Source: Escherichia phage YZ1
Direction: 5' to 3' (one strand)
DNA length: 38,823 bases
Sequence record: NC_047927.1
The position numbers and the translations under genes are program-made. Below are positions 7,994-36,370 of this stretch, in pieces. The notes below the pieces were generated by a model. The model searched no databases. It saw nothing but the letters and a program-made list of their open reading frames with translations, and had not been told where the DNA came from. Every line of letters starts with the position of its first letter. Positions within the stretch are counted from its first letter, which is position 1.

Positions 7994-8692
7994 ATGGCTA
8001 AAGAGCAACTGAAAACTTTCACCACTCCGGTCGCTGGTATTGTTGAGCCTTACGCATGGCTGAACAAAGCAGACACCAAGTTCAACGAGCGTGGTGAGCA
8101 TAAGGTTAACTTGACATTCGACCTGAGCAACCCGAAGGCCCGTAAGATGATTGATGTCTTACAGAAGATTCACGACGATGCGTATGCGAAAGCACTTGCA
8201 GACCACGAGAAGAACCCACCTCAGGTTCAGCGTGGCAAGAAGCCTATTGAACCACGAGAAGGCGACATGCCGTGGATTGAGAATGGTGACGGTACTGTTA
8301 CCATGAAGTTTAAATGCTTCGCGTCTTACCTGAAGGATGGTAAGTCAGAGCCTATCATATTACGGTTCTACGACACCGATGCTAAGTTAATCCGTGACGT
8401 CCCGAATATTGGCGCTGGCTCCAAACTGAAGGTCAAGTTTAAAGTCCTGCCGTTCAAGTGGAACGCTGCGACTGGCGCAAGTGTTAAGCTACAGCTTGAG
8501 TCCTGCCTTCTGGTAGAACTGAAGGAGTGGAAAGGTGATGGTGCTGGTGGCGATGGTGGCTGGGGTGATGATGAAGACCTCGGTACTGGCTACAAAGCGT
8601 CAACCGATGGTGACTTCGGGTCTGATGACTTCGGTGACGATGGTTCCGAAGGTGGGGATGACTCCAACTCTGGTGGCGATTACGACTTCTAA
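7994..8692 (+). CDS. Single-stranded DNA-binding protein (T7 gene 2.5 homolog, 232 aa)
   Basis: Same length as T7 gp2.5; conserved GSKLKVKFKVLPFKWNAATGASVKLQLES block; Gly/Asp-rich acidic tail ending in F. Confidence 0.93.
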   Translation: MAKEQLKTFTTPVAGIVEPYAWLNKADTKFNERGEHKVNLTFDLSNPKARKMIDVLQKIHDDAYAKALADHEKNPPQVQRGKKPIEPREGDMPWIENGDGTVTMKFKCFASYLKDGKSEPIILRFYDTDAKLIRDVPNIGAGSKLKVKFKVLPFKWNAATGASVKLQLESCLLVELKEWKGDGAGGDGGWGDDEDLGTGYKASTDGDFGSDDFGDDGSEGGDDSNSGGDYDF

Positions 8693-19404: not shown

Positions 19405-19422
19405 ACTATCACTATAGGAACA
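19400..19422 (+). promoter_or_regulatory. Phage RNAP promoter (T7 phi9 position)
   Basis: CCTAAACTATCACTATAGGAACA, predicted +1 G at 19417. Confidence 0.75.
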
Positions 19423-22357: not shown

Positions 22358-24714
22358 TGCCGCTTATTACGCAAAGCATAAAAAATCTTAAGGGTGGCAT
22401 TAGCCAGCAGCCTGATATACTGAGGTTCTCAGACCAAGGCGAGGCGCAGGTTAACTGCTGGTCATCCGAGAGTGATGGCCTCCAGAAGCGCCCACCTACA
22501 GTCTTCAAGCGACGTCTTAACATCGACGTTGGGAGCAACCCTAAGTTCCACCTGATTAACCGTGACGAGCATGAGCAGTATTACATCGTGTTCAATGGGT
22601 CAAACATTCAGGTAGTTGACTTGAGTGGAAATCAATACTCAGTGTCAGGTGCGGTAGACTACGTTAAGTCCTCCAGCCCACGAGATGACATCCGTGTCGT
22701 TACCGTGGCAGACTATACGTTCGTCGTTAACCGTAAGGTTGTCGTCAAAGGTGGAAGCGAGAAGTCACACTCTGGTTATAACCGCAAAGCACGAGCTTTA
22801 ATTAACCTGCGTGGTGGACAGTATGGTCGAACCCTTAAGGTGGGAATCAACGGTGGCGTTAAGGTCTCGCATAAGCTACCAGCAGGTAATGATGCAGAGA
22901 ATGACCCACCTAAGGTGGACGCTCAAGCCATTGGTGCAGCTCTGAGAGACCTTCTTGTTACTGCCTATCCTTCTTTCACGTTTGACCTTGGGTCTGGCTT
23001 CCTGCTAATCACAGCTCCTTCAGGGACCGATATTAACTCAGTGGAGACGGAGGATGGCTACGCTAACCAGCTAATAAGCCCAGTCCTAGACACTGTGCAG
23101 ACAATCTCTAAACTACCTCTTGCAGCTCCTAATGGGTATATCATTAAGATTCAAGGTGAGACAAACAGTAGCGCCGATGAATACTACGTGATGTATGACT
23201 CCAACACTAAGACGTGGAAGGAGACAGTGGAGCCGGGAGTTGTCACTGGGTTCGATAACACCACAATGCCACACGCTCTGGTACGACAATCTGATGGCTC
23301 CTTTGAGTTCAAGACTCTGGATTGGTCCAAGCGCGGTTCTGGTAACGATGACACAAACCCTATGCCTAGCTTCGTGGATGCTGTGATTAATGATGTGTTC
23401 TTCTACAGGAACAGGCTTGGGTTCTTGTCGGGTGAGAACGTAATCATGAGCCGTTCAGCCAGCTACTTTTCGTTCTTCCCTAAGAGTGTGGCGACACTGA
23501 GCGATGATGACCCTATTGATGTAGCTGTAAGTCACCCTCGAATCTCAATCCTTAAGTATGCCGTTCCGTTTAGTGAGCAGTTACTACTTTGGTCGGATGA
23601 GGTTCAGTTCGTGATGACAAGCTCTGGGGTACTTACCTCGAAGTCTATCCAGCTTGATGTAGGCTCAGAGTTTGCCTTAGGTGATAATGCCAGACCGTTC
23701 GCTGTAGGACGCTCAGTCTTCTTCTCAGCTCCTCGTGGGTCATTCACCAGCATTAAGCGATACTTCGCTGTAGCTGATGTGTCTGATGTGAAGGATGCTG
23801 ATGATACAACCGGTCACGTATTGTCCTACATCCCTAACGGGGTGTTTGATATTCAAGGTACAGGGACTGAGAACTACATCTGCGTCAACTCTACAGGTGC
23901 ATACAACCGTATCTACATCTACAAGTTCTTGTTTAAGGACGGCGTACAGCTTCAAGCCTCTTGGTCACACTGGGAGTTCCCTAAAGATGATAAGATTCTG
24001 GCGTCTGCTTCTATTGGCTCTACCATGTTCATCGTTCGTCAGCACCAAGGAGGGGTAGACATTGAGCACCTTAAGTTCATCAAGGAGGCAACTGACTTCC
24101 CGTCAGAGCCGTATAGACTCCACATTGACTCCAAGGTGTCTATGGTAATTCCAATTGGCTCATATAATGCTGACACCTATAAGACTACGGTTGACATTGG
24201 TGCTGCTTATGGTGGCAACGCTCCGTCTCCCGGTCGGTACTATCTGATTGACAGTCAGGGTGCTTATGTGGACATTGGGGACTTGACCAGTATCTCTACT
24301 GTGATTACCCTCAACGGCGATTGGTCAGGACGCACAGTGTTCATCGGACGGTCCTATCTTATGTCCTACAAGTTCTCACGGTTCCTGATTAAGATTGAAG
24401 ATGATAGTGGAACTCAGTCTGAAGACACTGGTCGCCTACAGCTTCGTCGGGCTTGGGTCAACTACAAGGACACTGGCGCTCTGAGACTCATTGTCAGAAA
24501 CGGTGAGCGGGAGTTCGTGAACACCTTTAATGGGTACACCCTTGGTCAGCAAACCATCGGTACTACAAACATTGGTGACGGGCAGTATCGCTTCGCTATG
24601 AATGGTAACGCATTAACCACTAGTCTAACCTTAGAGTCCGATTATCCTACCCCAGTGTCAATCGTTGGGTGTGGCTGGGAGGCGTCATACGCTAAGAAAG
24701 CTCGTTCCGTCTAA
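22357..24714 (+). CDS. Tail tubular protein B (T7 gene 12 homolog, 785 aa)
   Basis: N-terminal ITQSIKNLKGGISQQPDILR, HLINRDEHEQYY, MPHALVR, FFYRNRLGFLSGEN, LKYAVPFSE, RLQLRRAWVNY and C-terminal IVGCGWE; colinear with T7 gp12. Confidence 0.95.
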   Translation: MPLITQSIKNLKGGISQQPDILRFSDQGEAQVNCWSSESDGLQKRPPTVFKRRLNIDVGSNPKFHLINRDEHEQYYIVFNGSNIQVVDLSGNQYSVSGAVDYVKSSSPRDDIRVVTVADYTFVVNRKVVVKGGSEKSHSGYNRKARALINLRGGQYGRTLKVGINGGVKVSHKLPAGNDAENDPPKVDAQAIGAALRDLLVTAYPSFTFDLGSGFLLITAPSGTDINSVETEDGYANQLISPVLDTVQTISKLPLAAPNGYIIKIQGETNSSADEYYVMYDSNTKTWKETVEPGVVTGFDNTTMPHALVRQSDGSFEFKTLDWSKRGSGNDDTNPMPSFVDAVINDVFFYRNRLGFLSGENVIMSRSASYFSFFPKSVATLSDDDPIDVAVSHPRISILKYAVPFSEQLLLWSDEVQFVMTSSGVLTSKSIQLDVGSEFALGDNARPFAVGRSVFFSAPRGSFTSIKRYFAVADVSDVKDADDTTGHVLSYIPNGVFDIQGTGTENYICVNSTGAYNRIYIYKFLFKDGVQLQASWSHWEFPKDDKILASASIGSTMFIVRQHQGGVDIEHLKFIKEATDFPSEPYRLHIDSKVSMVIPIGSYNADTYKTTVDIGAAYGGNAPSPGRYYLIDSQGAYVDIGDLTSISTVITLNGDWSGRTVFIGRSYLMSYKFSRFLIKIEDDSGTQSEDTGRLQLRRAWVNYKDTGALRLIVRNGEREFVNTFNGYTLGQQTIGTTNIGDGQYRFAMNGNALTTSLTLESDYPTPVSIVGCGWEASYAKKARSV

Positions 24715-28131: not shown

Positions 28132-31100
28132 ATGGCGACTCGTGGTATTCGCAATAACAATCCTGGTAACATCCGGGTAAGTAAGGACCAATGGGAAGGA
28201 ATGACTGGAGATGATGGCTCATTCGTCACCTTCGATAGCCCAGAGTCTGGCGTCCGAGCTTTAGGTAAAAACCTGCTGTCCTACGGTCGCCAAGGCTATG
28301 ACTCCATCGAGAAGATTATCAACCGATGGGCACCTCCTAACGAGAACGACACTAAGGCTTATATCGACTCAGTGGTGGCTGCAACTGGTATTCCAGCTAC
28401 CCAGAGTCTCGACCTATCGGACCCTGACACCCTGTCTTCTCTGGCTCAAGCTATCAGCTTCCATGAGACAGGCTCCCGGTACGACCCTGAAGTCTATCAG
28501 AAGGGAGTCGCACGAGCACTCAATGGCATAACCCCAAAGACTCCACCAGTAAGCGCTAACGTATTTGACGCACTCACGGAAGGACTCAAGGCTAAACCTA
28601 AAGTAGCTCTGGGCGAGAACCTTCCGACCGCTGCTGGTCTAAACATTGAGGGTCAAGCACCTGAAGCTCCCAACGAATCGTTCGGTGAGATGTTCTATAA
28701 GTCTACTGGCGAGACCATGCAGGAACGAGAGGATCGCTCTACGTGGTTCGGTTTCGGCTCGGCTACAGAAGCTGAAGTGAAGAACTCTATGGTCGGCGTG
28801 GCTATCCGGGCTGGTCAGACCGAGGACTCACTTGATGTCATTGGCGATGTGTTCAACCCTACCCGCTGGAACAACCATAAGTGGTCTCGTGAGGAGCTGG
28901 ACCAGATTCGTAACGCTGGAGTTCTCCCTCAGTATTACGGTGTCATTACTGGTGGCTCCCCTCAGAACCTGACCGAGCTTATTAACTTGGCGCTTGAGAA
29001 CCAGAAGTTGGACCAAGAGAAGGCCAAGGCCGGGACTGGCGCTCAACTGGCGGCTGGTGTGATTGGCGCTGGCGTGGACCCTCTGACCTACGTTCCTATT
29101 GCTGGGCAGGTAGGTAAAGGTGGGAAGCTAGTCAACAAGATGTTCACTGTGGCTGCTCAGTCTGGTGCTCTGGCTGGGGCATCCGAGATTGCTCGAACCT
29201 CAGTTGCTGGTGGGGACGCTCATGTGGCTGAAGCTATCCTTGGTGGTGCGCTATTTGGTGGTGGCATGACTGCTATCGCTGATGGGCTAGGCAGGGCCTT
29301 AGGTCGCAACACTAACGAGTTCGCTGGTCCAGCAACACGCCTAGAAGCCCGTGAGACCGCTCGTAACGTTGATGGTCAGGACCTGTCTCGTCTCCCTATT
29401 CAGGAAGGTGAGCAGACCTTTAGTCATCAAGGAGTTAAGTTCGCTGACGTTCCGAATGAGCCGGGTAGTGTACGGCTTGAAGACGGCTCAATCCTGATTG
29501 GTGAGAACCCTCTGAACCCTAAGACACGTCAGGTCTTTGACGAAGTGATTGAGCCTGAACGTGCCGCTGCTGGTGTGAACCTTGGCGGACTTACCGAGAT
29601 TGGCCTGAAGCTGCTTCGGTCTGAGAACCCCGAGATTCGTGGAGTAGCTGCTGACTTAGTGCGTTCACCGACTGGCATGCAGTCTGGGGCCTCAGGTAAA
29701 ATCGGGACAACTGCGTCAGACGTGTTCGAGAGACTTCGTGCTGTGGACCATCGGTTCTACAACGATATCGACGATGCGGTTACTGAGGCACTAAAGGACC
29801 CGTACTTCCAGACAGCATTCTGGCGAGACTCTGGAGCATTCCGTCAGGACATCTACCAGCGCGTGTCTATGGCTATCGAAGATGGTAGCGGAAATCTGAA
29901 GGCTGAACTGACTCCGGGAGAACTGAAAGTCTATGACCTACTGAAGAACCAGTTTGACGCCAAGCGTGAGATGATGGAGAATCCAGCTATGTTTGGTCGG
30001 CCCGACGCTCAGTCTATCTTTCCGGGTAGCCGCTTCAAGGGAACCTACGTCCCTCATGTGTACAGCAAACAGATGAAGGAGCTGTACATCAAGGAGCTTG
30101 GGAGCCCAGAGTCGTTGCAGGAGGCCATCAAGAAGTCATGGTTGACCAGCTATGCGTCTCGACCTGAAGTCAAGAAACGCGTGGACGAGGCACTCTTAGA
30201 GGCTGACCCTACGTTGACTCCAGAGGGACTTGCTGCTGCGGTCGATAAGTACGCCAACGATAAGGCTTACGGTATCTCTCACACCGAGCAGTTCGAACGT
30301 TCATCCGTAATGGAAGAGAACATCAACGGTCTGGTTGGGCTGGAGAACAACAGCTTCCTTGAGGCTCGTAACCTGTTCGATAGCGATATGTCAATCGTCT
30401 TACCTAACGGTCAGACATTCAGTGTCAACAACCTGCGTGAGTGGGACATGGACAAGATTGTCCCGGCCTACAACCGTCGAGTTAATGGCGATATTGCTAT
30501 CATGGCTGGTACAGGCAAAACCACGAAGGACATGAAGGATTTGGTTGAGACCATGATGAACAAGGCTGGGGATGACGGTAAGTTGAAAGGTGAAGTATCT
30601 ACCTTACGTGACACCTTGAAGATTCTAACTGGTCGTGCTCGACGTGATGGTGCTGATGATGCAGCCCTCTCTACCGTGATGCGCACAATGACAGACCTAT
30701 CGTTCTTCGCTAAGAATGCCTACATGGGTGTTCAGAACCTGACGGAGATTGGTGGTATGCTGGCTAGGGGCAACGTTCGTGCAATGCTGCATGGAGTCCC
30801 TATTTTCCGTGACCTAGCCTTCCGTAACAAGAAGGTAGGGGCCTCAGAGATTAAGGACCTGCACAATGTTATCTTCGGTAAGGAACTTGATGACTCAATC
30901 CGTCCGTCTAAACAGGATGTCATTGACCGTCTGCGATCTTACAGTGACCTCGGTCGTGGTACAGCTACAGCTCTGGGGACTGCCAAGTATTACACTGGCG
31001 AACTTGCAGTACGCTCTCCGTTCACTAAAGTCCTCAACGGTACGACCAACTACCTGTTAGATGCTGGACGTCAAGGCTTCCTATCTGACATCGTGGAGCA

Positions 31101-32019
31101 TAGCCTGACTGGTAGTAAGCGTAAGTTCGATGACCGCTGGCTTAAGACCGCTGGTATCTCTGATGAGCAGTGGAAGGGCATTAAGTCCCTCATCCGAGAG
31201 TCAGTGACTCGTGGTCCAGACGGGAAGTACACCATCAAGGATAAGAAGGCGTTCAGTCAGGACCCAAGGGCTATGGACCTGTGGCGTATGGGTGACATCA
31301 TCGCTGATGAAACGTTACTACGACCTCATAAGCTGTCTAACATGGATGCCAAGGCTTATGGCCCTCTAGCTAAGACTGTCCTTCAGTTTAAGAACTTCGT
31401 CATCAAGTCCATCAATGGGCGAACCATGCGTACCTTCTATAACGCCACGAAGAACAACCGAGCGATGGATGCTGCTCTATCTACCGTGATGTCTATGGGT
31501 CTGGCTGGAATGTACTACATGGCGCAGGCGCACATCAAGGCTTACGCTATGCAGGATGGTCGCGACCGAGAGTATCTGAAGCAAGCCCTTAACCCGACAA
31601 TGATTGGCTATGCGGCTCTGTCCCGTAGCTCCCACTTGGGTGGACCACTTGGGGTCGCCAACATTCTGGGCGGCATCGCTGGGTATGAGGACACTAAGCT
31701 GCTCCGTTCGTCTATCCTGCCACGTTCACCAACAGAGAAACCTGAACGCGCCATCTCGTATGGTGCAGCTACAAGTGACCCTGTGATGAATGTAGTCGGC
31801 AACTTCCTTGAGCAGGTTCCGGCTTTCGGATATGCCGCTAACGTGGGGGCTTCGGCTTACAACTTGGCTGGATACCTGAAGGCTGACACCCGTGTGAATG
31901 AGCGAGACTACATGACCGGGATGTATAACACTTTCCGCGAACTGGTTCCGAACGACCCCATTACCCAGAAGCTGATTCTGGGAACATTTGAGGAACAAGG
32001 CATCCACATCAAGGACTAA
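28132..32019 (+). CDS. Internal virion protein D (T7 gene 16 homolog, 1295 aa) with a divergent N-terminal domain
   Basis: Strong colinear similarity to T7 gp16 from about residue 200 (TWFGF, VTGGSP.NL, GAGVDPL.YVP, RLEARETARN, VRSPTGMQSGASGK, GTYVPHVY, AYGISH, NGLVG.ENNSFLEARNLFDSD, ILTGRARR, RPHK, C-terminal NDP.TQ). The N-terminal 130 aa carry an NNPGNIR motif rather than the T7 transglycosylase signature. Confidence 0.95.
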   Translation: MATRGIRNNNPGNIRVSKDQWEGMTGDDGSFVTFDSPESGVRALGKNLLSYGRQGYDSIEKIINRWAPPNENDTKAYIDSVVAATGIPATQSLDLSDPDTLSSLAQAISFHETGSRYDPEVYQKGVARALNGITPKTPPVSANVFDALTEGLKAKPKVALGENLPTAAGLNIEGQAPEAPNESFGEMFYKSTGETMQEREDRSTWFGFGSATEAEVKNSMVGVAIRAGQTEDSLDVIGDVFNPTRWNNHKWSREELDQIRNAGVLPQYYGVITGGSPQNLTELINLALENQKLDQEKAKAGTGAQLAAGVIGAGVDPLTYVPIAGQVGKGGKLVNKMFTVAAQSGALAGASEIARTSVAGGDAHVAEAILGGALFGGGMTAIADGLGRALGRNTNEFAGPATRLEARETARNVDGQDLSRLPIQEGEQTFSHQGVKFADVPNEPGSVRLEDGSILIGENPLNPKTRQVFDEVIEPERAAAGVNLGGLTEIGLKLLRSENPEIRGVAADLVRSPTGMQSGASGKIGTTASDVFERLRAVDHRFYNDIDDAVTEALKDPYFQTAFWRDSGAFRQDIYQRVSMAIEDGSGNLKAELTPGELKVYDLLKNQFDAKREMMENPAMFGRPDAQSIFPGSRFKGTYVPHVYSKQMKELYIKELGSPESLQEAIKKSWLTSYASRPEVKKRVDEALLEADPTLTPEGLAAAVDKYANDKAYGISHTEQFERSSVMEENINGLVGLENNSFLEARNLFDSDMSIVLPNGQTFSVNNLREWDMDKIVPAYNRRVNGDIAIMAGTGKTTKDMKDLVETMMNKAGDDGKLKGEVSTLRDTLKILTGRARRDGADDAALSTVMRTMTDLSFFAKNAYMGVQNLTEIGGMLARGNVRAMLHGVPIFRDLAFRNKKVGASEIKDLHNVIFGKELDDSIRPSKQDVIDRLRSYSDLGRGTATALGTAKYYTGELAVRSPFTKVLNGTTNYLLDAGRQGFLSDIVEHSLTGSKRKFDDRWLKTAGISDEQWKGIKSLIRESVTRGPDGKYTIKDKKAFSQDPRAMDLWRMGDIIADETLLRPHKLSNMDAKAYGPLAKTVLQFKNFVIKSINGRTMRTFYNATKNNRAMDAALSTVMSMGLAGMYYMAQAHIKAYAMQDGRDREYLKQALNPTMIGYAALSRSSHLGGPLGVANILGGIAGYEDTKLLRSSILPRSPTEKPERAISYGAATSDPVMNVVGNFLEQVPAFGYAANVGASAYNLAGYLKADTRVNERDYMTGMYNTFRELVPNDPITQKLILGTFEEQGIHIKD

Positions 32020-32037
32020 ACTATCACTATAGGAACC
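32015..32037 (+). promoter_or_regulatory. Phage RNAP promoter (T7 phi17 position)
   Basis: GACTAAACTATCACTATAGGAACC, predicted +1 G at 32032. Confidence 0.75.
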
Positions 32038-32084
32038 GGGAGGCGCTACCACAGGTCTCCCATTAATTCACAACAGGAGGTATA

Positions 32085-35003
32085 ATGGCTAGAACAACTA
32101 TCACTCAGTTCCCCGCTGGAAGCTCTCAGTACCGAATTGAGTTCGACTATCTGGCACGACCTTTCGTCGTTGTTACGTTGGTTAACAGTTCAAACATGAC
32201 TCAGAACAAGGTCTTAGACGTAGGTAGTGACTATCGGTTCATGAGCGCAACGGTCATTGAGATTCTTATCGACCAGACGGGATTTGATATCGTGCGCATC
32301 CAGCGTCAGACTGACACAGACTTGGTGGTATCCTTCCGCGATGGTTCGGTTCTGACCGCTAACGACCTGACTAACGCTGAACTTCAAGCCATTCATATAG
32401 CTGAAGAGGGCCGAGAACAGACACTCATAACGGCGGCTGAGTTTGTATTGGCTGCACAGCGTTATTCTGAGGCTTCAGCAAGTTCAGCAGCAGAAGCAAG
32501 GGCCGCAAGGGACAGGGTGGAGCTATTAATGTCTTCTGGCCTATACGGATATGTACTGGTAACATCTTTCCAGACAGGAGCAACACTTACTCTTCCTAAC
32601 CAAGCACTTAAGGACGAGTCGACTGGCGAATACTTCAGGTGGGACGGTTCTCTTCCTAAGTCTGTTCCAGCAGGCTCCACCCCTAGCTCTTCCGGTGGTG
32701 TCGGACCTGGGGCGTGGGTTAGCGTAGGTGATGCATCGTTACGCGGCAACCTTAAGAGCGAGGACAGCGACAAGGGTGATTCCCTGTATACCGTGAAGCA
32801 GCCGTACGTAGGCTCTATCGGTCTTACCGGAAAGGCTAACAACGCACTGTTCATTAACGTGAAGCAGTTTGGTGCTGTAGGCTCTGGCAGCTATCACCCT
32901 CTGTCTGAACGGTATGGAACCCTTGCTGAGGCTCAGGCTCATTACCCATTTGTCACAAGTCTTGCTGAGTCTATAGACTATGCTGCGTGGCAGGCGGCTC
33001 TCAACACTGGTAAGGTTGTGTATGGGACCGATAACGCCTACGTGATTACCCAGACCCTGCTGCCAGTATCTGGTGGTGGGATTATTGGACTCGGCGTCAA
33101 CAAGTGGGTGTCTGGTTTCACAGCGACCTTTAACCCTGACCTTGAGACCGGTACTACATTCCTCATGTATGGCTCTGGTCCGAAGAACTACACGCTTGAC
33201 TGCGTGTCAAACATGGACGTGTCAGGAGGGGTAGTTGCAAACCCATCGGCCTCGGACCCTTATACAGCCACCTCTCCAGCCCCATCGTATGACCTTCTGG
33301 ACTTCACCAACGGCGATGCCAGTGGTACTACACGAGCTACCTTGAAGCCCTTCTCAGTGGCAATCCTAATGCCTGAGACTGGTTGTGTGCGCTTGGAGAA
33401 CTTCCGCATCGTACCATACTTCAACGGACTTGATGGGTACAAGAGCCTAACTAATACTGGTCTTGGAGATAACTGGGACGTAGGCATCTGGTCAAGGGCA
33501 TCGTTTGGCAACGAGTATCGAAACCTACAGGTTGTAGGCTACTGGCGTATGACCGCGCTGCTGAAGACAAACGTTCCACTGTCTGGCACTATCGCGGCTC
33601 AAGGCGAGGATGAGAACTACTACCACTGCCGCTTCCAAGGATATAAAGGCGTTTCAATACGTGCGCACGACGTGTTCAGGATAACGGCTGTTACTGACAC
33701 TACGATAGAAATACCGTGGTCAGCCAGTCATACATTCAACGCAACTGGCACTCTGCGAGCTAGAGGTCATAACTTCGTGTACACGTCTCTGTCAGTATCT
33801 GGCGACAAGCTCATCTTTAACGGTGTGTCTAACGCTTCGTTGGCGACCGTTGGTTCGACCATACGTCGCAACGATATTGACAACTTCGGCATAGCGGGTA
33901 CTCAGTTCTTTGACTGCTACATTACCAGCCTTTACCATCACACCAGACTAATGTCCACCTCCCAATATCTCGACCAGCCTTTCAGTAGGCCGTCTGAGTG
34001 CATGGAGGTTTCTGGTGAGCCTGTTAGGGGTGTACAGGTTCATGGCAGTACAATACAGGGGTGGGACGACGTTCTTCTTCACCTGCATGATTGTGGGAAC
34101 ATGAACTTTTATAGCACCTACTTTGAGAGTCAGCCCCCTTACGAGACAATTGGTGGCGGTAATGCCTCATTTGGCTATGGTGCTCGCATGCTTGCTTCAA
34201 GACAATCAACAAGTTCCCTACCTTATGCTGCCGGGAATACTCGCGTATTGCGGATGATTGGCTGCACCGAGGGGAACGGGGTTGATTGGGGTCCAGAATA
34301 TACAACTTACACAGGCGGTCGATACACAACTACTGGCGGTGTATTCAATCCCAGAGAGAGCTATATAGACCATAAAGCGTTCCCTGAGCAGGCCGATAGT
34401 GAAGTGCGTCTGGTATCGGAGAAAGGGAACGTTAGGGTGTCACCTTATACCGGAGGTTTTGTGTATGTTGGTCCTGCTTCAGGGGATGCCAACTTACAGT
34501 CAGCCTCAGGGTCTTTGAACCTGCTGTCTGGTCTTAGGGTACGATTTGGTACACCTTCGGCATACTGGGCCTTGATTGATTCCGCTAAGTTTGCCCCTAC
34601 AACAGACAACGTGTTGGCTATTGGTCAGCCGTCTAAAAGGGTGTCAGTAGTCTATGCTGGTACAGGTACAATCAATACTTCAGATGAAAGACTTAAGGTT
34701 CGCGATGGGATAACTAGCGAGGAGCGGGCCGCTGCTTTAGAGATTAAGGCTAACATCTGGAAGTACCGCTTCTCGGACTCGCTAGAGCGGAAGAAGGATG
34801 GTGCCAGACTCCACTTCGGTGTTGGGGCGCAGACTGTAGGTGAAATATTGCGCAAGCATGGACTGGACCCTGATTGCTACGCCTTCTGGTGCTACGATGA
34901 GTGGCCCGACAGTACCGATGAGGATGGGGCGTTTACTCCGGCTGGGAACCGTTATGGCATCAGGTATGACGAGCTGCTGTGCTTCTTGATGGCAGCGATT
35001 TAA
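32085..35003 (+). CDS. Tail fiber / tailspike protein (972 aa): T7 gp17-like N-terminal adaptor, large central domain, C-terminal chaperone-like domain
   Basis: N-terminal 150 aa align with the T7 gp17 particle-binding domain (FDYLARPFVVVTL, DYRF, FRDGSVLTANDL, IAEE.R); the central region begins with a pectate-lyase-like FGAVG motif; the C-terminus carries SDERLK ... HFGVGAQTVGEIL, typical of the intramolecular chaperone (peptidase S74-type) domain. Confidence 0.92.
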   Translation: MARTTITQFPAGSSQYRIEFDYLARPFVVVTLVNSSNMTQNKVLDVGSDYRFMSATVIEILIDQTGFDIVRIQRQTDTDLVVSFRDGSVLTANDLTNAELQAIHIAEEGREQTLITAAEFVLAAQRYSEASASSAAEARAARDRVELLMSSGLYGYVLVTSFQTGATLTLPNQALKDESTGEYFRWDGSLPKSVPAGSTPSSSGGVGPGAWVSVGDASLRGNLKSEDSDKGDSLYTVKQPYVGSIGLTGKANNALFINVKQFGAVGSGSYHPLSERYGTLAEAQAHYPFVTSLAESIDYAAWQAALNTGKVVYGTDNAYVITQTLLPVSGGGIIGLGVNKWVSGFTATFNPDLETGTTFLMYGSGPKNYTLDCVSNMDVSGGVVANPSASDPYTATSPAPSYDLLDFTNGDASGTTRATLKPFSVAILMPETGCVRLENFRIVPYFNGLDGYKSLTNTGLGDNWDVGIWSRASFGNEYRNLQVVGYWRMTALLKTNVPLSGTIAAQGEDENYYHCRFQGYKGVSIRAHDVFRITAVTDTTIEIPWSASHTFNATGTLRARGHNFVYTSLSVSGDKLIFNGVSNASLATVGSTIRRNDIDNFGIAGTQFFDCYITSLYHHTRLMSTSQYLDQPFSRPSECMEVSGEPVRGVQVHGSTIQGWDDVLLHLHDCGNMNFYSTYFESQPPYETIGGGNASFGYGARMLASRQSTSSLPYAAGNTRVLRMIGCTEGNGVDWGPEYTTYTGGRYTTTGGVFNPRESYIDHKAFPEQADSEVRLVSEKGNVRVSPYTGGFVYVGPASGDANLQSASGSLNLLSGLRVRFGTPSAYWALIDSAKFAPTTDNVLAIGQPSKRVSVVYAGTGTINTSDERLKVRDGITSEERAAALEIKANIWKYRFSDSLERKKDGARLHFGVGAQTVGEILRKHGLDPDCYAFWCYDEWPDSTDEDGAFTPAGNRYGIRYDELLCFLMAAI

Positions 35004-35018
35004 TTAACAGGAGGCTTT

Positions 35019-35213
35019 ATGATTGAGTTAGACTTTAAGAACGAAGTCCTTAAGGCCTCCCCTATCGTTGGAACCGCTGCGGCTGATGGTGCCAGTCGGT
35101 TCTTCTTTGGACTCACACTGAACGAATGGTTCTACGTTGCAGCTATTGCGTACACCGTTGTCCAGATTGGTGTTCTGGTATACAAAACGATTAAAGGGGG
35201 AGGAAAGTCATGA
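35019..35213 (+). CDS. Class II holin (T7 gene 17.5 homolog, 64 aa)
   Basis: KASPIVGTAAADGASRFFFGLTLNEWFYVAAIAYTVVQIG is near-identical to T7 gp17.5. Confidence 0.9.
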   Translation: MIELDFKNEVLKASPIVGTAAADGASRFFFGLTLNEWFYVAAIAYTVVQIGVLVYKTIKGGGKS

Positions 35214-35535: not shown

Positions 35536-35937
35536 ATGGAAGGCGCATATATAAGTGGAGGATACTGGAAGGTTACTCGCAATGGTAAGGTGCATGGAGT
35601 TCACAGATTACTATGGGAGGAAGCCAACGGTCCTATCCCAGAGGGTTACGTCATAGACCACATTGACAGGAACCCTATGAATAACGAGCTGTCAAACCTT
35701 AGGTGTATACCCAAAGGAGCAAACAAGGCTAACACAGAATCATCTAGGGAACTACCTAAGGGTGTATACTCTAGGCTTGCTAAACGTCAAGGTGTGACTG
35801 TATATTATGGTGACATTAGGATTGGTGGTAAGAAAGAAACTCACGCTCCTACTAAGAATCTGATGGAAGTCGTGGAATGGGCTAAGTCAACTCACAGCAG
35901 AATGCTGAAGGAGACATATGGTATTTCAAATGTTTAA
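35536..35937 (+). CDS. HNH endonuclease (133 aa), likely a free-standing homing endonuclease
   Basis: HNH signature in HRLLWEEANGPIPEGYVIDHIDRNPMNNELSNLRCIP; codon usage rich in AGG/AGA and lower GC than the flanking core genes; no counterpart at this position in T7. Confidence 0.85.
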   Translation: MEGAYISGGYWKVTRNGKVHGVHRLLWEEANGPIPEGYVIDHIDRNPMNNELSNLRCIPKGANKANTESSRELPKGVYSRLAKRQGVTVYYGDIRIGGKKETHAPTKNLMEVVEWAKSTHSRMLKETYGISNV

Positions 35938-36370
35938 GAGAGCGGCTCCGTGGTTACTTGCAGCAGTGATGTTTGCTGGTGGCTACCACACCGCTAACAA
36001 TAAGTGGGAGGCTAAGGTAAATGCAGAATACACCTCGAATCTTAAGGCATCGGAGGATACAAGACTTGCTGTCCAAGCTGAAGTCAACAAAGTGTCCAAA
36101 CGGTTCCAGGACGAAATGTCCTCGTTGGAAGGCAGCACTGATAGGATTATTGCTGACCTTAAGTCTGACAATAAGCGGCTGCTCATCCGAGTCAAACCAA
36201 CGAGTGGAACCACGCAAAGTGACGGTCGATGCGTCATTGATGGTAGAGCCGAACTTGACGAACGAGATGCTAAACGTCTTATCGCCATCGGAGTGAAAGG
36301 AGACAAGTGGATTAAGGCCCTTCAAGACACTGTGAGAGCCTTACAGCAAGAGAAGGAGGTGAAACCTTGA
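35918..36370 (+). CDS. Rz-like i-spanin (T7 gene 18.5 homolog, 150 aa; start may be the second ATG at 35930)
   Basis: N-terminal TM segment, then [18 protein letters not shown] ... [16 protein letters not shown] ... [17 protein letters not shown], colinear with T7 gp18.5. Confidence 0.85.
36021..36296 (+). CDS. Rz1-like o-spanin lipoprotein embedded in the +1 frame of Rz (T7 gene 18.7 homolog, 91 aa)
   Basis: [21 protein letters not shown] with lipobox cysteine, then [18 protein letters not shown], matching T7 gp18.7 as remembered; wholly inside the Rz ORF. Confidence 0.7.
   Translation: MQNTPRILRHRRIQDLLSKLKSTKCPNGSRTKCPRWKAALIGLLLTLSLTISGCSSESNQRVEPRKVTVDASLMVEPNLTNEMLNVLSPSE

Follow-up and report, generated by a model that had tools for sequence, protein, structure and literature searches.

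Gene Context and Expression Signals

The window, i.e., the whole stretch of Escherichia phage YZ1 DNA that was analysed (NC_047927.1; 38,823 nt), belongs to Kayfunavirus and is 95–96% identical to known phages outside gene 17. The locus is organized as follows:

28132-32019, gp16, upstream neighbour of gene 17
32020..32036 (+), phage-RNA-polymerase promoter consensus, phi17-like (ACTATCACTATAGGAAC, perfect match)
32075..32080 (+), Shine-Dalgarno sequence AGGAGG, 4 nt 5′ of the gene 17 ATG, read from the sequence
32085..35003 (+), gene 17, tailspike precursor, ATG start, 972 aa plus stop
35019-35213, holin (PF10746), downstream neighbour of gene 17

We found that gene 17 lies where T7-like genomes have it, between gene 16 and the holin gene, with gp18, Rz/Rz1 and terminase genes located 3′ of the latter. 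The phi17-like promoter adjoins the gene 16 stop codon, 48 nt upstream of the gene 17 ATG, and is one of 10 phage-RNA-polymerase promoter sites in the window, all on the + strand, versus 0.1 expected. Within gene 17, a scan for sigma-70 promoters and terminators gave no more hits than the shuffled expectation. Phage K1F, whose gp17 is the endosialidase endoNF (AM084414), has a backbone of the same genus type, its flanks being 93% identical in nt, and carries the gene at the same position; in the window, a phage promoter lies immediately upstream, and the downstream intergenic region spans 15 nt instead of the ~120 nt seen in K1F.

Since a megablast search of the phage collection yielded no match for gene 17 DNA, its product was analysed by protein-level searches. 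It matches phrog_1171 (“tail spike protein”) over its full length (PHROG, E 1e-198), and its Pfam matches (Phage_T7_tail, Peptidase_S74 and a piece of End_tail_spike) are far beyond chance. Together with the β-helix fold described below, these matches support the sequence-only reading of this gene as an adaptor followed by a depolymerase-like centre and a chaperone. We hold the tailspike architecture with its chaperone to be very likely, and gene 17 probably encodes the only receptor-binding tailspike of the phage, assembled from exchangeable modules. The architecture itself (anchor, β-helix, self-cleaving chaperone) is ordinary and of an already-known, textbook type, K1F-type phages being the paradigm for the combination of an anchor, a depolymerase and a self-cleaving chaperone.

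The N-Terminal Anchor

The anchor covers residues 1–227 and consists of three parts:

32085..32432 (+), T7 gp17-type tail-attachment (adaptor) domain, residues 1–116 (Pfam PF03906)
32433..32561 (+), Ala-rich helical linker, residues 117–159, with helices at 117–130 and 135–151 in the low-confidence full-length model
32562..32765 (+), Tail_spike_N domain (PF18668) and end of the anchor module, residues 160–227, the upstream exchange junction

Phage_T7_tail (PF03906) was detected at residues 13–116 with 57.2 bits (cut-off 25.2, E 2e-15), and residues 4–116 match in sequence the solved N-terminal structures of T7 gp17 (7boz, 8dsp, 8e4g). Residues 1–113 share 76% identity with K1F gp17, and the DNA up to nt 32422 shares 87% nt identity. 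The linker retains 28% identity with K1F and possibly forms a trimeric coiled coil. It is followed by Tail_spike_N (residues 160–216, 73.4 bits against a cut-off of 25, E 1.6e-20), a domain missing from the earlier domain list, which is modelled with a pLDDT of about 80 in the full-length model and matches in sequence CBA120 TSP1/3/4 and other solved spikes. Overall, the anchor including Tail_spike_N is homologous to that of K1F gp17 (60% identity over residues 4–227). The sequence-only reading ended the T7 gp17-like part at residue 150; judged against K1F, the genus-level anchor reaches to about residue 227. At the DNA level, nt 32624–32734 form an island of 72% nt identity with K1F between unalignable DNA on both sides, in agreement with the conserved motif described at the anchor end (PMC10408124).

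The Central β-Helix

Downstream of the anchor, the following features were distinguished:

32766..34559 (+), receptor-binding module, right-handed parallel β-helix, putative capsule depolymerase, residues 228–825
32859..32888 (+), VKQFGAVGSG, N-terminal cap motif of the β-helix, residues 259–268

The full-length monomer AF2 model is poor (pLDDT 53.5) and Foldseek TM-scores from it are not meaningful; a central-domain model built from a wider alignment was used in its place. In that model, residues 228–825 form a right-handed parallel β-helix. The nearest solved structures found by Foldseek are the Pseudomonas phage tailspikes phi297 gp61 (4ru5) and LKA1 gp49 (4ru4), both of which act on the P. 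aeruginosa O-specific antigen; residues 257–342 also match them in sequence, a similarity confined to the helix cap and absent from the helix body. The VKQFGAVGSG motif indeed begins at residue 259 (nt 32859). Its description as pectate-lyase-like is borne out in part: no pectate-lyase-type Pfam profile (PF12708, PF13229) matches the gene 17 protein at E ≤ 1, while PF12708 does match relatives at the equivalent helix cap, with 35.6 bits in P0121 (above the cut-off of 27) and 18.5 bits in P0122 (below it). As these relatives are 43–44% identical to the window central domain, the pectate-lyase link is transitive only. Three acidic residues, D465, D529 and E681, do not vary among homologs down to 30% identity, and two more, E641 and D662, hardly do.

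This module has no counterpart in K1F gp17, nor does the catalytic part of the latter (residues about 223–874) have one in the window protein. No BLASTP alignment was obtained between window residues 228–829 and K1F gp17, whose GH58 sialidase domain covers endoNF residues ~246–910, and the central segments share 4–16% identity with K1F at a coverage below 50%. We therefore rejected the possibility that gene 17 encodes an endosialidase, given the lack of sialidase domain homology and a PF12219 match that is only C-terminal, limited to the last 37 profile positions; with the sialidase domain replaced by a β-helix, the product is not an endosialidase. Some sources annotate relatives as “endo-N-acetylneuraminidase,” a label probably due to the shared C-terminus.

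The Predicted C-Terminal Stalk and Chaperone

The C-terminal part of the protein comprises:

34560..34679 (+), predicted stalk before the predicted cleavage site, residues 826–865, resembling the C-terminal stalk of endosialidase
34638-34640 (+), codon of the conserved R852 within the stalk, aligned with K1F R897
34680..35000 (+), intramolecular chaperone/Peptidase S74 domain, residues 866–972, predicted to be released by a cut before S866

The stalk shares 40% identity with K1F. Residues 829–865 match positions 124–160 of End_tail_spike (PF12219) with a score of 22.4 bits, which falls short of the cut-off (25). Its pLDDT in the monomer model is below 60, as would be expected if it folded only as a trimer. 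The profile search suggested by the sequence-only reading placed Peptidase_S74 (PF13884) at residues 866–927 with 25.1 bits, only 3 bits above the cut-off of 22. Both motifs on which the chaperone assignment had been based were located: SDERLKVRDGIT begins at residue 866 (codon 34680–34682), S866 opening the last 107 aa, and HFGVGAQTVGEIL begins at residue 910. Compared with solved structures, the homolog profile retrieved the chaperones of endoNF (3gw6, E 3.6e-34), T5 pb1 (4uw8, 4e-33) and the GA-1 neck appendage (3gud, 1e-26), all of which have the Ser-x4-Lys dyad in common with the window protein. The GA-1 structure was also matched by Foldseek (TM 0.62), a score drawn from the full-length model with its pLDDT of 53.5.

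S866 and K871 (34695–34697) align with K1F S911, the annotated start of gp17-CTD, and K916. The predicted stalk and self-cleaving chaperone are homologous in both phages with the Ser/Lys/Arg triad in register; chaperone identity is only about 35%. Among the homologs, S866 is conserved in 17/20, K871 in 18/18 and R852 in 19/20. The roles of the Ser/Lys dyad and of the Arg in this domain were described previously (PMC3742443); R852 may act as the oxyanion residue, and the gene 17 protein would be expected to trimerise and to lose residues 866–972 by autoproteolysis. One homolog carries Cys instead of the nucleophilic Ser. Within this one β-helix family, the chaperone attached to the helix comes in three or more divergent versions.

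Module Exchange Among Phage Lineages

The receptor-binding module was found behind five other adaptors, i.e., in an N4-like phage, a siphovirus, a ~75-kb phage, and P22-like and epsilon15-like prophages. Gene 17 originated by module exchange, unrelated phage lineages carrying the same receptor-binding module. The prophage copies are 77% identical to the window module, with 83, 81, and 56% identity over the three main segments: the helix body (residues 257–770) retains 81–83%, residues 771–825 retain 56%, and residues 228–256 retain 48%.

The same principle was reported for E. coli tailspikes (Pas et al., 2023; PMC10408124): the anchor is conserved within a genus and has a conserved DNA motif at its end, and the receptor-binding domain is exchanged horizontally. 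In that study, the tailspike of Kayfunavirus YZ1 represents subtype X28 and matches prophage proteins in O102, O6, O1, and O153 hosts, a pattern very similar to that found here, and a K-antigen receptor was suggested. The receptor was left unnamed there, whereas the association with krkA (K13/K20/K23) derives from the present analysis. Judging from gene content rather than taxonomic assignment, the lineages that share the module appear to correspond to the Kayfuna-, Gamaleya-, Lederberg-, Uetake- and Kaguna/Nouzilly-like genera of that work.

Host Capsule and the Candidate Substrate

We observed that krkA, the K13/K20/K23 capsule polymerase gene, is present in 11 of 15 prophage-carrier genomes and absent from four, compared with 65 of 5,426 genomes overall (P = 4e-19, a value that overstates the evidence since the genomes are phylogenetically non-independent). 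This association was measured on the prophage relatives, 77% identical to the window over the module, so the specificity of the window subclade could differ. The annotation “HAD family hydrolase” had suggested a K2 capsule; this candidate was dropped as the accession is KrkA of the K13 strain NCTC9022. The chromosome of XH992 is rearranged, and an IS-rich island lacking kps genes occupies its syntenic region.

The frequency of krkA among carriers points to the Rib-Kdo capsule, not the O-antigen, as the likely substrate. A K13/K20/K23-type capsule is our leading, still tentative, candidate for the substrate of the gene 17 spike. That the β-helix is instead an O-antigen-specific depolymerase, like most P22-like and epsilon15-like tailspikes and its nearest solved relatives, seems unlikely to us. 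LKA1 gp49 is a lyase that cleaves the O-specific antigen (PMC5701251), and the spikes of the P22-like and epsilon15-like prophages in which the module occurs usually track the host O-antigen (PMC10408124); still, the resemblance to LKA1 and phi297 in sequence stops at the helix cap. To examine the O-antigen explanation, the O-clusters of three hosts were read, and the O102 and XH992-type clusters were searched. The hosts of prophage spikes that are 99% identical differ in their O-cluster (O102, O6, and a third one), and the occurrence of the same spike in at least three O-types led us to reject the O-antigen as the main explanation. Moreover, the module is present in just one of the 60 O102 genomes listed (of 107), and its carriage follows krkA, a kps region-2 gene.

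A somewhat better case, albeit an improbable one, can be made for a depolymerase acting on a capsule or exopolysaccharide other than K13/K20/K23, e.g., another Kdo-containing group 2 capsule or a single acetylation variant. The krkA count covers hosts of the prophage clade, while the window-type subclade comprises the window protein, P0001 and P0002, and its divergence from the prophage clade, which may have shifted specificity, is concentrated in residues 771–825 and 228–256. Furthermore, O-acetylation is all that distinguishes the K13, K20, and K23 capsules, and host acetyltransferase genes differ. Against this, the helix body is well conserved between the window and the prophage clade, all residues invariant across the family, including members with as little as 30% identity, are present in the window protein, and receptor-binding proteins at least 30% identical constitute one specificity subtype in PMC10408124. 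It is far less probable that the β-helix merely binds its receptor and functions as a tail fibre. Such a role would fit the absence of assigned catalytic residues, of a direct match to a catalytic Pfam family and of an NCBIfam family for the protein, but enzymes dominate this fold class and the acidic residues named above are invariant or nearly so. As a rule, capsule-specific podoviruses also cannot get through the capsule unless they have depolymerase activity, the K1F endosialidase being the paradigm. We regard the gene 17 product as likely to be an enzymatic depolymerase, its chemistry more likely hydrolytic than eliminative.

In the overall mechanism that we propose, with moderate confidence, for a capsule-degrading spike, residues 1–116 would dock the spike trimer onto the T7-type tail, and the helical linker and Tail_spike_N would complete the genus-level anchor up to about residue 227. 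Residues 228–825 would bind and most likely cleave the host surface polysaccharide, allowing the phage to reach the outer membrane; the putative substrate is a K13/K20/K23-type group 2 capsule, whose repeat is ->3)-beta-Ribf-(1->7)-beta-Kdop-(2->. Residues 826–865 would serve as the stalk, while the chaperone (866–972) would drive trimer folding and then cut the T865–S866 bond via Ser866/Lys871, freeing itself. The putative function is analogous to that of K1F gp17, which cuts a capsule whose polymer contains ulosonic acid.

Significance

The K13_K23 type ranks with the E. coli capsule types that show the strongest association with invasive disease (PMC13171606), and no phage depolymerase gene for it was found in the literature searched. 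We tentatively propose, at somewhat less than even confidence, that the β-helix module and its prophage relatives represent the first sequence-defined family of phage depolymerases for the E. coli K13/K20/K23 (Rib-Kdo) capsule, a β-Kdo-cleaving glycanase. A single capsule-specific module would in that case have moved between six phage lineages, P22-like and epsilon15-like temperate phages among them. What is new in this analysis is the krkA association of the hosts of module-carrying prophages across at least three O-types, and the approach, in which the presence of a prophage spike is correlated with the K-locus of its host instead of the O-locus, is generally applicable. If the proposal is true, the module could be used as it stands, as an enzyme and targeting domain specific for K13/K20/K23, in phage engineering, capsule typing or anti-virulence work. 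Temperate phages of the P22-like and epsilon15-like kinds are commonly taken to be specific for the O-antigen; the proposal, if true, would mean that such temperate coliphages can be capsule-specific.

Gene 17 and its genomic setting

The window belongs to Kayfunavirus (K1F group); its nt 8000–32000 are 95–96% identical to phiYIO1-1, phiHAO and pO2, with vB_EcoP_F reaching 96.1% over 95% of this span. For gene 17, megablast against 50,697 phage records gave no match, no phage record spans at least 80% of its protein, and the exact protein was not found in public assemblies. The closest relative (P0001, 92% identity) comes from a second contig of Kayfunavirus type, where synteny is preserved. 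The sequence-only reading had called the gene 17 frame exactly, and AGGAGG stands four bases 5' of its ATG.

Features of the gene 17 region
32020–32036, +, perfect copy of the phage-promoter consensus, ACTATCACTATAGGAAC, directly 3' of the gene 16 stop
32085–35003, +, gene 17 ORF, ATG start, 972 codons plus stop
35536–35937, +, HNH_3 homing-endonuclease ORF, 133 aa (Pfam, E 3.3e-18)
35918–36370, +, Rz (i-spanin), weak Pfam match
36021–36296, +, Rz1 (o-spanin, PF17531), E 6e-26

The promoter-like consensus for a phage RNA polymerase, ACTATCACTATAGG(A/G)A, occurs ten times in the window against 0.1 expected by chance, always on the + strand (2091, 5169, 6860, 7936, 16581, 19405, 20404, 24744, 32020 and 38230), the copies at 19405 and 32020 being perfect. 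A scan for sigma-70 promoters and terminators within gene 17 gave no excess over the shuffled expectation. The HNH_3 ORF, which K1F lacks, lies between gene 18 and Rz, overlapping the Rz start by 20 nt; the contig encoding P0001 carries an unrelated Endonuclease_7 gene (L010:11446–11817) in this slot, which appears to attract selfish endonucleases of different kinds. As in T7, Rz1 is wholly embedded in Rz in another frame.

Domain architecture and the C-terminal chaperone

We found four Pfam matches in the gene 17 protein, one of them under its cut-off.

Pfam matches in the gene 17 protein
Residues 13–116, Phage_T7_tail, E 2e-15
Residues 160–216, Tail_spike_N (PF18668), E 1.6e-20
Residues 829–865, last 37 positions of the End_tail_spike profile, 22.4 bits, below the cut-off of 25
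Residues 866–927, Peptidase_S74, 25.1 bits against a cut-off of 22

The T7-type N-terminus had been recognized from the sequence alone, while Tail_spike_N had been missed; the protein belongs to three families, T7-adaptor, Tail_spike_N and S74-chaperone. NCBIfam returned no family, and PHROGs gave a full-length match to the 'tail spike protein' family and an unannotated family over residues 298–823 (E = 0). In sequence comparison, matches to solved structures are confined to the protein ends and the helix cap: residues 4–116 match T7 gp17 and other adaptors, ~150–240 the CBA120-type Tail_spike_N domains, 257–342 the phi297 and LKA1 tailspikes, and ~826–970 the chaperones of endoNF, T5 pb1 and GA-1.

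In the K1F record AM084414, where experimental maturation is annotated, residue 910 is the last of the matured endosialidase gp17*, and Ser911 the first of gp17-CTD. BLASTP pairs INTSDERLK of the window with IVTSNGERK of K1F, which sets S866, K871 and R852 in register with S911, K916 and R897. SDERLKVRDGIT begins at residue 866 (codon 34680–34682, as previously placed) and HFGVGAQTVGEIL at residue 910. Across 23 homologs aligned together, with counts taken over the sequences that cover each site, K871 is kept in 18 of 18, R852 in 19 of 20 and S866 in 17 of 20, the exceptions including one Cys and one Thr; H910, G912 and Q916 are also conserved. Because this alignment, the match of the homolog profile to the endoNF chaperone 3gw6 (E 3.6e-34) and the known mechanism—a Ser-Lys dyad with an oxyanion-stabilising Arg, placed correctly only once the trimer has folded (PMC3742443)—all agree, the S74 membership proposed earlier for the C-terminus is well supported, and its self-cleavage is predicted. 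In the homolog P0014, Cys (CDGREK) replaces the nucleophilic Ser, which could mean either a thiol-based form of the S74 mechanism or a loss of activity.

Central beta-helix domain

Modelled as a full-length monomer, the protein scored poorly (pLDDT 53.5). After the homolog set was enlarged by two further searches, residues 228–865 gave a model with pLDDT 83.3 and pTM 0.81, confident over ~257–767. The 'depolymerase-like beta-helix' reading of this putative enzyme is supported at the fold level, and the motif VKQFGAVGSG is present from residue 259. The expected direct pectate-lyase match did not appear: PF12708 finds nothing in the gene 17 protein itself and matches the equivalent helix cap in the relatives P0121 and P0122, 43–44% identical to the central domain. 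Across homologs of 30–93% identity, the invariant residues include D465, R488, Q518, R526, D529, W545, H618, R648 and E681, with E641 and D662 near-invariant. With clusters drawn at 50% identity, the family is large: a limit of E <= 1e-30 takes in 152 of them, and one of E <= 1e-10 takes in 422.

Exchange of the receptor-binding module

DNA homology with K1F (87%) runs through gene 16 up to nt 32422 (~codon 113). An island of 111 nt (32624–32734), where the Tail_spike_N region ends, is 72% identical; beyond it, homology resumes only at nt 35006, three bases past the gene 17 stop. This island corresponds to the conserved motif at the anchor end that Pas et al. (PMC10408124) put forward as a hotspot of recombination. 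Segment-wise identities show at least three junctions in the protein. K1F gp17 is 76% identical over residues 1–113, 54% over 160–227 and 40% over 826–865, with no significant match to 228–825, whereas the homolog P0002, devoid of the T7 adaptor, is 99–100% identical over 228–540 and 35% in the chaperone. In architecture and predicted function, the gene 17 product is a tailspike of the K1F type with its catalytic module swapped. The endosialidase catalytic domain of K1F has no counterpart here (BLASTP, segment identities), so that an endosialidase identity is ruled out.

The module is fused to five adaptors other than the T7 type, and the same helix is joined to at least three divergent chaperone versions.

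Carriers of the module with other adaptors
N4-like phage, 72.7 kb
Siphovirus, 44.7 kb
Phage of ~75 kb with rIIB and ribonucleotide reductase genes; two spikes
Epsilon15-like prophage, with a spike N-terminus which we take to be epsilon15-type; a gene nearby bears the annotation T7 gp14-family virion core protein
P22-like prophages, spike with Head_binding domain, P22 capsid genes nearby

The homologous spike of the ~75-kb phage and that of the N4-like phage each adjoin a second spike bearing Tail_spike_N (contigs L011, 6200–12814, and L012, 10001–15686), forming branched two-spike systems; the window phage has a single spike gene. Cross-genus module exchange with conserved junction motifs is an already documented phenomenon.

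Prophage carriers and predicted capsule target

Among 5,426 complete E. coli genomes, DNA of the prophage version, whose product is 77% identical to the window module, was detected (≥98.9% identity) at 19 places, spread over exactly 15 genomes. Four carriers (DLL7555, SBF22, OZ547246, 702/18) have two copies; in DLL7555 one lies in a P22-like prophage and the other (2162195–2164100) is annotated like an epsilon15-type spike, which suggests that unrelated temperate phages of the same specificity co-reside in one host. No fewer than three O-types occur among the hosts: PGAP annotation makes YDC107 O102 (O102:H6 ST964; PMC6035167), DLL7555 is O6 by its O-cluster (ST73; PMC13494036), and a third O-cluster is common to XH992, HS4 and E22. 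Such near-identical spikes (99% between YDC107 and XH992) in hosts of different O-types argue against O-antigen specificity of the module. A very similar pattern was reported for the Kayfunavirus YZ1 tailspike: its prophage matches come from O102, O6, O1 and O153 hosts, for which the authors suggested a K-antigen receptor (Pas et al., PMC10408124). In XH992 the O-antigen flippase gene is truncated and the cluster contains IS1 elements (L009, ~23057–23710), and no kps genes were seen in its IS-riddled island (L023), where its relatives HS4 and E22 have the K13-type capsule locus; XH992 may have lost both surface polysaccharides.

The kps region-2 gene common to YDC107 and DLL7555 is a 3,345-nt 'HAD family hydrolase' gene, 96.5% identical between them together with kpsM-kpsT. 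It is krkA (WP_001336789 in DLL7555); the protein was characterised from NCTC9022, the reference strain for K13, and is the only polymerase of the K13/K20/K23 capsule, whose repeat is ->3)-beta-D-Ribf-(1->7)-beta-D-Kdop-(2-> and whose members are distinguished by O-acetylation alone (PMC12887879). Between the two loci (L018 and L021) krkA alone is ~97% identical, and the neighboring acetyltransferase genes are unrelated, with no more than 145 nt alignable at 70%, consistent with different K13/K20/K23-group members. krkA is present in 65 of the 5,426 genomes and in 11 of the 15 spike carriers (0.18 expected; four lack it), with a hypergeometric P of 4e-19 and an odds ratio of 273 over genomes that are not phylogenetically independent; the association spans two prophage types, two krkA alleles and at least three O-types.

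Since the polymer is linked via the Kdo ketosidic carbon and lacks a 4-linked uronic acid, hydrolysis would be chemically more plausible than beta-elimination. Altmann and co-workers reportedly described, in the 1980s, phage-borne glycanases cleaving the beta-Kdo linkages of K13/K20/K23 polysaccharides, as biochemistry without sequences; our literature search found no sequence-defined phage depolymerase for this capsule. What the present analysis adds is a testable prediction, built on an association measured for the 77%-identical prophage version, that the module targets the K13/K20/K23 capsule, a K group associated with invasive disease (PMC13171606).
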